DNA of 64,000 nucleotides from Thermoanaerobaculia bacterium (GCA_044226625.1 JBGAGQ010000001.1:96001-160000), one strand, 5' to 3'; positions 35,504-44,480 are shown, counted from the first letter of the stretch. Notes: generated from the letters alone by a model not told the origin. Numbers and translations: made by a program.

Positions 35504-37288
35504 CTACGGCGCCTTCTTCCGCTCCTCCGCCGCGCCGAGGCCGAGATCCTGGATCCGCCGGTAGAGCGTCGAGCGGCCGAGGCCCAGCCGTTCGGCGGCC
35601 TCGACGACGTCGCCCGAAGCGGCCGCCAGGGCCTTCGCGATCTCGACGCGCTCCACTTCCAGCAGGCGGGCGGCGAGCGTGCCGTGATCGCCGATGCGGG
35701 GACCCGCCTGGACCTCGGGCGAGAGGCGGGACGAGCCGAGCAGATCGCCTTCGGCGAGGAACAGCGCCGCGCGTTCCATCTCGTTCTCGAGCTGGCGGAC
35801 GTTGCCCGGCCAGTCGTAAGCGACGAGCCGGTCGAGCGCGCCGCGCGAGATGCCGCGCAACGTGATCCGTCGCCGCGCCGCGGCCCGCGACAGAAACCAG
35901 GCGGCGAGGCTCGGCACGTCCGCCCGCCGTCTGCGCAACGGCGGCAGCTCGACCTCCCAGGCGGCGATGCGGTAGTAGAGGTCGTCGCGGAACGACCCCT
36001 CGGCCCGCAAAGCCGCGAGGTCGCGATGGGTGGCGGCGACCACCCGAACGCGCGCTGGGCGCGGCGCGGCGCCCCCCAAGCGATGGACCTCGCGCGCCTG
36101 AAGGACGCGGAGGATGCGCGCTTGGGTCGGCAACTCCATGTCGCCGATCTCGTCGAGAAACAGCGTGCCGCCGTCGGCCAGCTCGAATTTTCCCGGCCGC
36201 GCGTCAACGCCCGTCGCCACGCCCCGCTCGACGCCGAACAGCTCGGCTTCGAGCAGGTCGCGCGGCAGGGCGGCGCAGTTGAGCGCGACGAACGCCCCGC
36301 CTGCCCGGGACGACGCGGCATGCAGGTACCGCGCGAGGATCTCCTTGCCGGTCCCCGACTCGCCGAGGATCAATACGCCGACGTCCCCCGCCGCGACCGA
36401 GGCGGCGTCGGCGTAGATCCGCCGCATCTCGGGATCGAGGCTCGCCGGCTCCGGCAACGACGGTCGGGAGCGGCGCTCCCCTCCGGCTCCGTGCCGCGGG
36501 TCGTCCCCGGAGGCGACGCGCGGCGAGGCCCGCGATTCATCCGAAGCGATCGCGACCAACCGCGCCGCCGATTCGAGCAGGGGCCGGTAGATCTCGCCTG
36601 CCGCGGCGGACGGGAAGATCGCGCGCACGGCGATCGCTTCGAGCTGCCAGCCTACGGTCGCGGTTCCGCTCACCTCCCCCGCGCCGCCTCCGGCCTCCGA
36701 AAGGAAGAGCACGCCGGGCTCTTCACCGGCCGGCTCGCAGGTGATCTCGAGCCCGAGCAGCGGCAGGCAGCGGACGAGGGCCGCCCCGGCGGTCCGGGCC
36801 ATGGCGCCGGCATCGGCCCCTTCGCCCAGGATTCGCAGCAGCTCCGGCAGCTCTTCGCAGGCGAAGACGTCCAGCGCTCGGGTACCGAGCGTGGTCGCGG
36901 CGAGGGCCCCCGTCGCAGGTCGACGGGCCGGCCGCGGGGTTGGACGGGGAGCGATCTCCACCCCGGTTTCGCAATCCTCCGCCGCCACCTCCTCGAGGCG
37001 GAGCGAGACGCGCCCGAACGCGATCTCGGCCGGGGGCCGGACCTGCTCGTTCGCGATCCGTTGGCCGTCGACGAACGTGCCGTTGCGCGAAGCGAGATCG
37101 ACGATCTCCACCGCGACGTCGGGATCTTCGGCCTCACCCGCGACGCGAAGCTCGGCATGATGGCGCGAGATCGTCGGGTCCTTTAGCCGGAGGTCGCATT
37201 CCGCCGCGGCGCCGATCCGAAACGTCCCCGCCTCGAAAAGGAAAGAGATCGGCCGGCCGTTGACGCTCCCGGTGAGACGAAAAGGCAT
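35504..37288 (-). CDS. FHA-domain sigma54-interacting (bEBP) transcriptional regulator with Fis HTH
   Basis: ISRHHA/SRNGT FHA; GESGTGKE, FLDEI, FRDDLYYR and WPGNVRQL motifs; GVATGV in place of GAFTGA; HTH RSTLYRR. Confidence 0.92.
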   Translation of the reverse strand: MPFRLTGSVNGRPISFLFEAGTFRIGAAAECDLRLKDPTISRHHAELRVAGEAEDPDVAVEIVDLASRNGTFVDGQRIANEQVRPPAEIAFGRVSLRLEEVAAEDCETGVEIAPRPTPRPARRPATGALAATTLGTRALDVFACEELPELLRILGEGADAGAMARTAGAALVRCLPLLGLEITCEPAGEEPGVLFLSEAGGGAGEVSGTATVGWQLEAIAVRAIFPSAAAGEIYRPLLESAARLVAIASDESRASPRVASGDDPRHGAGGERRSRPSLPEPASLDPEMRRIYADAASVAAGDVGVLILGESGTGKEILARYLHAASSRAGGAFVALNCAALPRDLLEAELFGVERGVATGVDARPGKFELADGGTLFLDEIGDMELPTQARILRVLQAREVHRLGGAAPRPARVRVVAATHRDLAALRAEGSFRDDLYYRIAAWEVELPPLRRRRADVPSLAAWFLSRAAARRRITLRGISRGALDRLVAYDWPGNVRQLENEMERAALFLAEGDLLGSSRLSPEVQAGPRIGDHGTLAARLLEVERVEIAKALAAASGDVVEAAERLGLGRSTLYRRIQDLGLGAAEERKKAP

Positions 37289-37358
37289 GGTGGTCGAAGT
37301 GTATAGGGGGCCGCCCCCCGGTTCCCTCCCCGACGGGGTCGGCCCTTGAACCGTCCAG

Positions 37359-42068: not shown

Positions 42069-42074
42069 GTTCTC

Positions 42075-44480
42075 TCAGTTGCGGGATTCTTCGGCGAGGA
42101 GCGCCTTGGCCTCGGCGAGCGAATTCAGCAGCCCCTCGTCTCCGGGGCGGTTGCGCAGCCCGGTCTCGAAGAAGGCGATCGCCCTCGAGACCTCCGGCCG
42201 CGCCGATCGCCCACGCTTTCGCTCCCAGACCGCGAGGTCGAGGTGAACCAGACCTTCGTCGTTGTCCGCCGCCGCGGAACGCGGCTCGATCCGGCGGGCG
42301 GCGCGGAACTCGCGCGCGGCCTCTTCGAGCCTGGCGCGCGGGTCTTCGCCGCGATCGATCTGGGTCTCGGCGAGGATCAGGATCGACACCCCGAGGTTCA
42401 GATGCGGCATCACCCCGTCGGGCGCCGCCGCCACCGCCTTCCGGCCGCATTCGATCGAGGCGAGCAGGCTCGGCCGGGGATCGATCCCCTGCTTCCGCTC
42501 GTACTCGGCGCTCATGCTGTAGATCGCCGCAAGGTCGTCCCATGCGGTCGAGTTGCCGGGTTCGAGCCGGAGCGCCTGGCGGGCGAGCGCCTCGGCGCGG
42601 GCGAAGATCGGCCGCGGATCTTCTTTCCCCGCCATGCGGCGGTAGCCGCGGTCGCGGTAGATCGCCGACTCGATCGCCCAGGCGCGCGCCCGCTCGGGAT
42701 CGGCGCGGCGCGCCCGACCGCAGGCGGCGACCGCTTGGGCGAACGCCGCCTCGGCGGCGGCCTCGTGCCCCTCCTCGAACGCCTGGACCTGCGCCCAGCG
42801 CCAGCATTCGGCGATGCTCACGTCGGCGTCGCTGCGCGCCACCTCGGCCGCATTCCGATAGGCGAAGAGCGCTTTCCGGAGGTCGGCGAGCGCCCCGTCG
42901 ACCCCGCCTCGCTCCCACCCCTCCTGGGCCTGGATCGCGTGGACGTCGCCTTCGAGCAGCCAAGCCTCGTAGAGGCCCGGATCGGCGCCGTAGGCCTTGG
43001 CGGCCTGGGCGAGCGCGGCGCCGTCGCGCCGCTCGTAGAAATCGATCAGCCCGAGCGCGTATGCGACCTCCGGGCTCGGCCGCGACTCGGGGTTTCGGGG
43101 CAGCGCGGCCTTCAAGTACCGGAGCGCCGGATCGCGCAGCTCCCGCTCGATCGTCCGTCGTCGCTCGGCCCGGCGCTCCGGAGAATCGAGCCGGGCGAGG
43201 GCGGCGAGCTCCGTCTGATAGAGGTGCCCGAGCGCCCTGCCGAGGTCGCTCGCGACCTGCGGCGAACGCTCCCCCGCCGCCCAGGCTGCAGTGAGGTGAC
43301 GCCGCGCCGCCGCCTCGTCGTGAAGCGCGAGATAGCCACGCCCGAGAGCCCCCTGCGCCGGAGGCCGTGCCGCACCGGGAAGGCGATCGAGCCCCGCCTC
43401 GAGCCGCAGCAACTCGGCCCGCGCCGCCCGCCGCTCCGGCCGGGTGTCGTGGAGCGGCAGCAAGTAGGCGCGACGGAGCTGCGCGGCGATCCGCTCGACC
43501 TCCTGACCGTAGCGCTGGGCCGCGACCGCGCCTCGCCGCGCCGCGAGCCGCTCGTTCCAGCCCGCGGCGAGCAGCACGGCGATCGCCGTAAACGCCGCGA
43601 CCGCGACCGCCGAGACCAACCGATGGCGTCGGACGAGGCGCGCCAGGCGTGGCATCCATCCCGGGCCGCGCGCGAGCACCCGCTCGCGGTCGAGGTATCG
43701 ACCGAGATCGTCGGCCAGGGCGCGCGCCGACTCGTAACGTCGCTCACGCTCGGGCTCGAGGCAGCGAAGGATGATCGCCTCGACCTCGGCGGGAAGCTCG
43801 GGGGCGAGCTTCCGCGGCCGCGGGGGCGCGCAGGCGAGCGCCTGCACCAGGGTCTCGGCGGTGCTCTCCCCGGCGAACGGCGGACGCCCGGTGGCCAGCC
43901 GATAGAGAACGGCGCCGAGCGCGAACACGTCGGTCCGCGCGTCGAGCGACCGCACCTCGCCGCGCGCCTGCTCGGGCGAGAGGTAGCCCGGAGTACCGAG
44001 CAGCATACCGGTCTCGGTGAGCCCGTCCGAGTACAGCTCCCGGGCGAGGCCGAAATCGACCACCCGGGGTCGCTTCGTGCCGTCGGCCGCGGTCTCGATC
44101 AGGATGTTCGTCGGTTTGAGGTCGCGATGGATCATGCCGATCGCGTGCGCGGAATCGACCGCTCCGGCGACGCGGCGCACGAGGTCGAGCCCTTCGGCAA
44201 GAGAGAGCGAGGGGGCCGCCGCTTCGAGCGTTTGTCCCTCGACGTACTCCATCGCGATGTAGGGCCGGCCGTCGAGCTCGCCCACCTCGTACACCTTGGC
44301 GACCAGCTCATGCTCCACTCGCGCCTGCGACCGCGCCTCGAGTAGGAACCGCTCGATCGATCGAGGATCCGCCGCGCGCAAGAATTTGAGCGCGACGAAG
44401 CGGCCGAGACGTGGATCGAAGGCGCGATAGACCTCTCCCGTGCTCCCCTCGCCGAGCGGCACCGCCGTTTCGAAGCGCAT
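42075..44480 (-). CDS. Hanks-type Ser/Thr kinase with TM helix and TPR repeats
   Basis: LGEGSTGEVY, VALK, HRDLKPTN, DFG and GTPGYLSPE motifs; TM LVSAVAVAAFTAIAVLLAAGW; TPR C-terminus. Confidence 0.93.
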   Translation of the reverse strand: MRFETAVPLGEGSTGEVYRAFDPRLGRFVALKFLRAADPRSIERFLLEARSQARVEHELVAKVYEVGELDGRPYIAMEYVEGQTLEAAAPSLSLAEGLDLVRRVAGAVDSAHAIGMIHRDLKPTNILIETAADGTKRPRVVDFGLARELYSDGLTETGMLLGTPGYLSPEQARGEVRSLDARTDVFALGAVLYRLATGRPPFAGESTAETLVQALACAPPRPRKLAPELPAEVEAIILRCLEPERERRYESARALADDLGRYLDRERVLARGPGWMPRLARLVRRHRLVSAVAVAAFTAIAVLLAAGWNERLAARRGAVAAQRYGQEVERIAAQLRRAYLLPLHDTRPERRAARAELLRLEAGLDRLPGAARPPAQGALGRGYLALHDEAAARRHLTAAWAAGERSPQVASDLGRALGHLYQTELAALARLDSPERRAERRRTIERELRDPALRYLKAALPRNPESRPSPEVAYALGLIDFYERRDGAALAQAAKAYGADPGLYEAWLLEGDVHAIQAQEGWERGGVDGALADLRKALFAYRNAAEVARSDADVSIAECWRWAQVQAFEEGHEAAAEAAFAQAVAACGRARRADPERARAWAIESAIYRDRGYRRMAGKEDPRPIFARAEALARQALRLEPGNSTAWDDLAAIYSMSAEYERKQGIDPRPSLLASIECGRKAVAAAPDGVMPHLNLGVSILILAETQIDRGEDPRARLEEAAREFRAARRIEPRSAAADNDEGLVHLDLAVWERKRGRSARPEVSRAIAFFETGLRNRPGDEGLLNSLAEAKALLAEESRN

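Follow-up and report, generated by a model that had tools for sequence, protein, structure and literature searches.

A stretch of 64,000 nucleotides (nt) from a Thermoanaerobaculia bacterium (JBGAGQ010000001.1:96001-160000), called the window here, contains a group of five genes that code for a membrane Hanks-type Ser/Thr kinase, three putatively secreted proteins and a sigma-54 activator with an FHA domain (Table 1). Genes were called with an open reading frame (ORF) listing and Pfam, and this confirmed that all five, at positions 35504-44480, are located on the minus strand, as described in the initial annotation of this DNA. A promoter-like site of the -24/-12 type and a perfect palindrome are found between the kinase gene and the first of the three genes for secreted proteins, which are referred to below as the cargo. 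The best explanation for this arrangement, and the one towards which we lean, is a kinase-gated sigma-54 switch for secreted proteins, with the input step as its least certain part.

In the proposed mechanism, the membrane kinase would sense an extracellular signal through its helical-repeat domain and would signal to the neighbouring FHA-type sigma-54 activator, which would open the -24/-12 promoter from a site upstream of it, the palindrome being the most likely one. Transcription would then run through the three genes of the secreted proteins and, without a terminator, would probably continue through the activator gene, resulting in positive feedback, and perhaps reach the oxygenase, dehydrogenase and nonribosomal peptide synthetase (NRPS) genes that follow. 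The output would consist of a lectin-headed protein of 833 amino acids (aa), together with a DUF6345 protein of predicted caspase fold and a partner protein covering its active site, which may act as a pro-domain in trans or be a dedicated substrate.

Promoter region and regulators

The putative promoter lies in the 129 nt that separate the kinase gene from the 833-aa gene. Here, TGGCACGTTCGATGCT is found on the minus strand (41996-41981), with one mismatch to the consensus TGGCACG-N4-TTGCW and with its GG (41995-41994) and GC (41983-41982) at the canonical spacing. The -24/-12 site that had been placed ahead of the secreted trio is indeed present there and in the right orientation. Its GC is positioned 37 nt ahead of the ATG (41945), which itself is preceded at 8 nt by AAGGAG, and a transcription start would be expected near 41970. 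No other site with at most one mismatch occurs in the window, where 0.22 are expected; of 100 shuffles, 19 contained one or more. The -24/-12 motif alone is weak evidence, and its strength comes from position and orientation: the chance of such a site on one strand of a 129-nt gap is about 2e-4, as estimated from the shuffle rate. In addition, rpoN, without which the initial annotation held that the circuit would fall, was found in the genome by a profile search (222.9 bits).

The palindrome CGTCCCGCGCGCGGGACG was confirmed to be perfect over 18 nt; counting it, the 6.6 Mb of the genome contain 153 spacerless palindromes whose arms measure at least 9 nt. Its centre is located approximately 65 nt upstream of the -24 GG and approximately 90 nt upstream of the expected start, the latter being a usual enhancer distance. 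CGTCCCGCGCGCGGGACG is the candidate binding site of the activator. Contigs from a second study match parts of four of the genes (activator, partner, 833-aa and kinase) at approximately 96-99% identity; none of the matching pieces listed spans the promoter or the palindrome, and this closeness is too high to test conservation. Elsewhere in the window, a weaker -24/-12-like site with two mismatches, TGGCGCGGGTCCTGCT, is found at 24469-24484 on the minus strand, inside the annotated 5' end of an ABC1-kinase-like ORF.

The kinase contains a Pkinase domain at residues 5-256 (Pfam, E 4e-39) in which all Hanks motifs are present: GEGSTG (10), VALK (29), HRDLKPTN (118), DFG (142) and SPE (168). The domain is followed by a single hydrophobic helix at residues 288-308, as derived from hydropathy, and by an outer part of approximately 490 aa that is repeat-like, matching itself and the longer C-termini of homologues. 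The description as a membrane Hanks kinase with TPRs therefore holds for the kinase core and the one helix, whereas Pfam names just one TPR_17 (633-664, E 9e-6). Full-length homologues of this kinase with 36-40% identity adjoin activator homologues. They are 220-340 aa longer, and the only matches of the extra part in the window are to the repeats of the kinase itself. One idea is that the insertion of the cargo may have cut off the C-terminus of the kinase.

The activator is composed of an FHA domain at residues 24-92 (PF00498, E 6.7e-15, 55.7 bits against a cut-off of 20.7), an AAA+ domain at residues 285-446 (Sigma54_activat, PF00158, E 7e-58) and a Fis-type HTH_8 at residues 544-580 (E 5e-11). 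Walker A (GESGTGKE, 309) and Walker B (DEIGD, 379) are both present, and a conserved region of approximately 190 aa without a Pfam family is located between the FHA and AAA+ domains. By its sequence, the activator is part of an atypical clade. A scan of genome contigs with the whole activator gave only AAA+ matches from many phyla, which is uninformative on the family, and a literature search gave nothing that combines GAFTGA, FHA and enhancer binding.

The pairing of kinase and activator was compared in the 20 best loci around activator homologues, taken from 40 related genomes. The linkage between a kinase and an FHA activator is kept in these relatives, with a kinase gene near the activator in 13 of the 20 loci; it directly adjoins the activator homologue in 12 loci and is one gene apart in the 13th. 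Five of the kinases in these loci are alike over at least 700 aa, outer repeats included. Five arrangements of the pair were observed, kinase-activator, activator-kinase, divergent and convergent among them, and this variation in order and strand argues for selection on proximity and for a functional pair. Because seven of the 13 paired loci form a single syntenic group, there are fewer independent cases. In gene-order terms, the kinase/activator pair is a conserved module that is split here by the cargo: in relatives the two genes usually touch, while here the cargo separates them by 4.8 kb.

Sites with at most one mismatch to the -24/-12 consensus lie within approximately 300 nt of the pair in L017, L018, L019 and L020, which is four of the 20 loci. 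The site in L017 is a perfect consensus. For sites at such positions, a chance expectation of approximately 0.1 over the 20 loci was estimated from the shuffle rate. Also, L017 and L018 contain palindromes of the TTCTCA..TGAGAA type 130-170 nt upstream of their sigma-54 sites. The genes next to the sites differ between the loci, in agreement with the earlier suggestion of a kinase/activator pair with variable cargo, and include a CBM9/DUF5916 protein, 103-aa ORFs and large proteins of unnamed kind. In L020, an M36 metallopeptidase gene adjoins the pair, upstream of the activator.

The region 10850-11120 of L017 shows some further features. The perfect-consensus site, TGGCACGCGCTTTGCT, is located beside the activator homologue, with a near-perfect palindrome of 32 nt approximately 165 nt upstream. 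Approximately 70 nt downstream of TGGCACGCGCTTTGCT, an A-rich run and a GC hairpin are present, and the product may be a short transcript and not a protein gene.

The secreted cargo

All three cargo proteins have a hydrophobic, signal-like stretch at the N-terminus according to hydropathy, which indicates putative secretion, and none of them has an NCBIfam family. They had been described as three secreted unknown proteins. This still applies to the 833-aa protein, whereas the other two belong to a widespread DUF6345/partner module.

The DUF6345 family consists of 189 clusters from several phyla, with 44-83% identity. His108-Gly109 and Ser150-Cys151 are invariant in 43 sequences, and several further Cys residues are invariant as well. 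In the structural model (predicted local distance difference test (pLDDT) 75, with a weak loop at 111-125), the dyad residues follow the buried strands 102-106 and 144-148. Comparison of this model using VIA-align resulted in matches to CHAT with a Z of 12.9 (root-mean-square deviation (rmsd) 3.2, 178 residues aligned), metacaspase with 10.0 and caspase-9 with 9.9. Ranks 1-22 and 24-31 were all clan CD peptidases or inactive homologues, and rank 23 was an anti-sigma factor by its title. The best Foldseek matches were to SAVED-CHAT (E 1.7e-3), the same CHAT entry as found with VIA-align. The predicted fold is that of the caspases and hemoglobinases (clan CD), and from the model DUF6345 is probably a secreted cysteine peptidase. 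The DUF6345 profile gave no matches to PDB sequences at E<=1, and the literature searched, as far as its excerpts go, mentions DUF6345 only in a proteome study.

A homologue of the 368-aa partner directly follows the DUF6345 gene in all 25 loci obtained with the DUF6345 profile. A search based on the partner gave the same order in five of five loci, three of which are on the same contigs as the DUF6345 set. In the protein atlas, the partner matched unnamed clusters only. The partner has six close relatives, and its stretch S330-S331-R332-R333 is invariant. Prediction of the DUF6345/partner complex gave a score of 0.93 in three runs, while the best control scored 0.00; this mark is reached by 58 of 80 solved complexes and by two of 110 mismatched pairs. 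At least 93% of the contacts recur between the runs, and the pLDDT of the partner is at least 89. In the model, Ser331 and Arg332 of the partner touch His108 of DUF6345, and the partner is predicted to lie across the active site. Its suggested role is that of an inhibitor or chaperone resembling a pro-domain, or of a dedicated substrate.

Two of the DUF6345 loci show additional features. In a metagenome contig (L119, 1148-1858, minus strand), a 236-aa ORF that by eye combines an N-terminal winged helix (OmpR/EmbR-like) with an FHA domain is located 1.4 kb from the DUF6345/partner pair, so that a further regulator of the FHA type is found close to this module. In a metagenome-assembled genome of Acidobacteria (L140, 724-13431), the DUF6345 pair lies between weak oxygenase and dehydrogenase homologues (25-29% identity) and a Ser/Thr kinase that is 43% identical over the kinase domain, a partial echo of the gene set of the window. 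A general link between DUF6345 and kinases was also considered and was not retained: a Ser/Thr kinase occurs within 8 kb in five of the 25 loci, which is too few, and there is no base rate.

For the 833-aa protein, 478 representatives were found at E<=1e-3, two of which are full-length with 75% and 40% identity. In the core (approximately residues 290-520), D307, D309, E331, E397 and H399 are invariant, and relatives join this type of core to HYR, FG-GAP, PKD or LGFP modules, which are extracellular. The model has a pLDDT of 67, with low confidence in the C-terminal third. The head (approximately residues 40-200) is modelled as a beta-sandwich, for which lectins of the PA-IL/LecA type take the top three rows (Z 7.0-7.5, rmsd 3.1-4.0, 105-109 residues aligned), approximately 2 Z units above the next match; Z values below 8 are common by chance according to the note of the tool, so that the lectin-like nature of the head is suggestive only. 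No Pfam family was found for the 833-aa protein, and no Foldseek match in the PDB at E<=0.001. Relatives were absent from the 40 related genomes and from a pattern scan of genome contigs, and the protein atlas gave no usable match.

Alternative explanations and known systems

Several observations weigh against a kinase-gated switch, and they bear on its input, its promoter and its target in turn. The initial annotation had taken the FHA domain to be the reader of phospho-Thr. A canonical FHA pocket is formed by Gly-Arg, Ser-x-x-His and Asn-Gly motifs, and the Arg of Gly-Arg contacts the phosphate. In the activator, the Gly-Arg position is Gly-Ala (26-27), and it is Gly-Ser in 17 of the 18 alignment rows that cover the site, so the canonical Arg is absent across the activator family and phospho-Thr reading by this FHA domain is not assured. 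A kinase gene is also not found nearby in six of the 20 related loci, with one further contig that is too short to judge. The promoter and activator could therefore work as proposed while the signal enters by a route other than recognition of phospho-Thr by the FHA domain: direct phosphorylation of the activator by the kinase, use of the FHA domain as a phosphate-independent dock, like the FHA-like domains of the type III secretion ring, or a ligand that binds the conserved region of approximately 190 aa. The match of the FHA domain to Yop-YscD_cpl (E 2.5e-12) and the conservation of that region without a Pfam family are in line with such an input. What speaks for phospho-Thr is that two further motifs lining its pocket, Ser-Arg-x-His and Ser-x-Asn-Gly, are kept here as SRHH (41) and SRNGT (67), although these positions were set by the alignment pattern and not by a structure. 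The adjacency of a kinase in 13 of the 20 loci points in the same direction. Another kind of input is held to be unlikely, and we infer that the kinase acts on this activator and would do so through phospho-Thr.

The promoter may be doubted as well, since the genome contains 30 -24/-12 sites with at most one mismatch, against approximately 23 expected from the shuffle rate of the window. In addition, CGTCCCGCGCGCGGGACG begins 6 nt past the stop codon of the kinase gene, where an RNA hairpin is also plausible, and it is unlike the palindromes in the related loci. The match could thus be due to chance. In that case an ordinary promoter ahead of the kinase gene, or promoters that went unrecognised, would drive the five genes, and in the RNA CGTCCCGCGCGCGGGACG could form a hairpin where the kinase message ends, as an attenuator, a stabiliser or a terminator without U residues. 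As RNA, CGTCCCGCGCGCGGGACG would form a 7-bp GC stem, and the intergenic gaps are short and have no predicted terminator. On the other hand, the low chance estimate for the 129-nt gap and the presence of such sites next to related activators argue for a functional site. As an intrinsic terminator, CGTCCCGCGCGCGGGACG has the stem but is not followed by a U-tract, and it is missing from the list of the terminator scan; the predicted fold of 56 nt around it is no more stable than that of shuffled sequence (z -0.75). Upstream of the kinase, a scan of the minus strand for sigma-70-type promoters gave nothing promoter-like. A chance match is considered somewhat less likely still than a different input.

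The target of the activator is a further point. In studied activators, the Phe of the GAFTGA loop contacts sigma-54. Here the loop reads GVATGV (356-361), and the Phe is replaced by Ala in all 20 aligned family members. None of the three cargo genes was found in the 20 related kinase/activator loci, and the 25 DUF6345 loci contained neither an activator homologue nor an 833-aa gene. Evidence that ties the regulators to the cargo therefore comes from this genome and, indirectly, from a single contig signature. It is conceivable that the true targets of the activator are elsewhere, in the NRPS genes or at distant loci, or that it does not work with sigma-54 and is of the TyrR type, and that the cargo merely landed between two regulators. 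The DUF6345 pair is a free-standing module elsewhere, and the G+C content of the cargo region (0.645 at 40001-42000) is lower than the 0.72-0.74 on either side, both of which would fit such a landing. Against this, sigma-54 sites cluster beside the genes of this clade, no other -24/-12 site is found in the gaps of the block in which the genes lie, and a published regulon prediction for a GVATGV activator, in the excerpted text, points to sigma-54 promoters (PMC4641369). By this analogy the GVATGV clade probably still works with sigma-54, and of the three alternatives this last one is regarded as the least probable.

Two contig signatures were noted. One, of six contigs up to 150,053 bases in length, is common to relatives of all three cargo proteins. 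The other, of 12 contigs up to 184,965 bases in length, is common to relatives of the protease, relatives of the partner and an FHA-activator relative that is 54% identical across 285 N-terminal residues. Both are indirect signs, and they suggest that the cassette exists elsewhere.

In the own genome, GVATGV is present in two of 24 AAA+ matches. The second of these activators (G000:C47:7420-8505, minus strand) is without an FHA domain and is kept in seven of seven same-genus genomes, as seen in DNA and protein matches.

Within a kinase-gated switch, a broader view can be put forward as a tentative possibility only. Activators with an Arg-less FHA domain and a GVATGV loop, together with neighbouring receptor kinases, would form a distinct class, spread widely among Acidobacteriota, that couples eukaryote-like kinases to sigma-54 without two contacts held to be essential, that of the FHA Arg with the phosphate and that of the GAFTGA Phe with sigma-54. 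At this locus, the class would have captured a hitherto unrecognised secreted protease system in which DUF6345 is held by a pro-domain-like partner with an Arg-Arg loop in the active site.

Related wiring has been proposed before. In Myxococcus xanthus, enhancer-binding proteins with FHA domains were reportedly described by Jelsbak, Givskov and Kaiser in 2005 (PNAS 102:3010), with the proposal that Ser/Thr kinases feed sigma-54 transcription. As in those activators, the FHA domain is found here in the position of the receiver domain on a sigma-54 activator of a kinase-rich bacterium. Several points set the present system apart: the kinase directly neighbours the activator, a pairing that families across an Acidobacteriota order retain; the Arg is missing from the FHA domain, and GVATGV stands in the L1 loop; and the proposed target is an adjacent operon for secreted proteins instead of developmental genes. 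The PknH-EmbR system of Mycobacterium tuberculosis, which Molle and colleagues are said to have described in 2003, likewise pairs a membrane Hanks kinase with a transcription factor bearing an FHA domain, through which the kinase signals. It differs in that EmbR is a winged-helix/BTAD protein acting at sigma-70 type promoters and with a canonical FHA pocket, while the protein described here is an AAA+ sigma-54 activator. To our knowledge, wiring from a kinase to a sigma-54 activator was proposed for myxobacteria approximately 20 years ago, and we know of no biochemically defined example. The idea of such wiring is known, and it is the features found here that are unusual; what the locus contributes is a defined target operon flanked by its two regulators, and an explicit interpretation of DUF6345 with its partner.

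The loop sequence has a precedent in DVUA0100 of Desulfovibrio vulgaris Hildenborough, which has a GVATGV L1 loop and for which activation of adjacent sigma-54 promoters was predicted, according to the excerpted text (Kazakov et al. 2015, PMC4641369). Within the literature searched, and to the extent of its excerpts, this was the only activator found with GVATGV. DVUA0100 and the activator described here have in common the GVATGV loop, a one-component design, a long N-terminal region and a gene within a sigma-54 dependent operon. They differ in that the excerpts describe no FHA domain or kinase partner for DVUA0100, and its regulon is that of type III secretion. The word "enhancer" has no occurrence in a review of Hanks kinases (PMC6213207).

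For DUF6345, the closest known group is clan CD (caspases, metacaspases, CHAT, separase, gingipains, legumain and clostripain), to which the model aligns with Z values of 8-12.9 over 154-193 residues. As in this clan, buried strands precede both the invariant His-Gly and the invariant x-Cys, and the predicted position of the partner's Arg-Arg at the dyad fits the Arg/Lys preference of several clan CD members. Unlike known members, DUF6345 has no sequence match to solved chains and is a secreted protein of 265 aa with several invariant Cys residues and an obligatory separate partner gene.

With the kinase, the activator, one promoter, one candidate site and the read-out all within 9 kb, the locus is a compact system for reconstitution. 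Two textbook "essential" motifs are replaced in a clade that still adjoins sigma-54 promoters, and the locus provides a test of both. Also, DUF6345, with its clusters spread over several phyla, gains a testable reading as a secreted clan CD peptidase with an obligatory bound partner.

Genomic setting

The genes described above are part of a 16-kb block in which the NRPS, dehydrogenase, oxygenase, activator, partner, DUF6345, 833-aa and kinase genes are all located on one strand (Table 1).

Table 1. Positions of the genes and sites of the locus in the window
Feature	Position	Strand	Basis or remark
Membrane Hanks-type Ser/Thr kinase, 801 aa	42075-44480	-	Pfam Pkinase, TPR_17
Perfect 18-nt palindrome CGTCCCGCGCGCGGGACG, candidate activator site	42051-42068	.	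unique in genome
Sigma-54 type -24/-12 promoter TGGCACGTTCGATGCT, predicted	41981-41996	-	one mismatch to consensus
833-aa protein, putatively secreted, without Pfam family	39444-41945	-	signal-like N-terminus
DUF6345 protein, 265 aa	38507-39304	-	Pfam PF19872, E 4e-7
368-aa partner of DUF6345 protein, without Pfam family	37359-38465	-	gene order, complex model
Sigma-54 activator, 594 aa (FHA, Sigma54_activat, HTH_8)	35504-37288	-	Pfam, NCBIfam, alignments
2OG-Fe(II) oxygenase	34253-35368	-	Pfam
Short-chain dehydrogenase	33346-34329	-	Pfam
One-module NRPS, T-C-A-T-TE	28970-33349	-	Pfam
16-kb block without syntenic match in same-genus genomes searched	28583-44571	.	genus DNA search

In the same-genus genomes searched, this block has only paralogue-level matches. 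To its left, matches with approximately 76% identity stop at approximately 28582, the end of a permease gene (four genomes), and to its right, DNA matches with 80-85% identity are found only beyond approximately 44572 (seven genomes), in a flank that contains an M35 protease gene and genes of the Fe-S/formate-dehydrogenase type. The two flanks are located on separate contigs in the same-genus genomes. The edges of the block have no direct or inverted repeat of at least 10 nt in common, and no tRNA gene was found in the window.

Some of the wider claims for the circuit fared less well than its core. It had been called self-contained, which was not borne out, as Pfam analysis of the genes of the block gave no phosphatase gene. 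It had also been suggested to reach the NRPS cluster. These genes share the block and the strand, but no -24/-12 site is present in the 135-nt gap ahead of the oxygenase, dehydrogenase and NRPS genes. The terminator scan predicted no terminator-like site in the gaps between the co-oriented genes, so read-through into the NRPS genes is possible, and by read-through only the oxygenase, dehydrogenase and NRPS genes could be targets. A connection to the divergent M35 protease is unlikely because its gene is kept in same-genus genomes in which the block has no syntenic match and no -24/-12 site is found in its upstream gap; the gene appears to be conserved backbone, and no reason is seen to place it in the circuit.

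A tandem array of 11.8 copies of the 20-bp unit GTCCCGTATTCTGGAATTAC is located at 28703-28938, where the block has its left edge, close behind the 3' end of the NRPS gene. Arrays of the GTCCCGTATTCTGGAATTAC family are found on at least eight contigs of this genome, and the matches listed in the genus search were all in its own contigs. The core of the unit, CGTCCCG, equals a half-site of the palindrome, and the array was considered as a second binding array; this is probably chance, as the genome contains 2475 copies of the 7-mer and the array family is dispersed.

A NuoF-like protein encoded in the window is 82% identical to one from a metagenome-assembled genome named as Thermoanaerobaculia and at most 65% identical to the other 79 matches listed, so that the organism is most likely an acidobacterium of this type. 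The window also contains two MacB_PCD/FtsX permeases of 811 and 814 aa (26146-28581 and 53516-55960, both on the plus strand), a duplicated gene of a type that is common in Acidobacteriota. A 901-aa CHAT (caspase-like) protein is encoded at 56001-58706 on the minus strand (E 4e-32); it is the second clan CD protein of the window and is unrelated in sequence to DUF6345.

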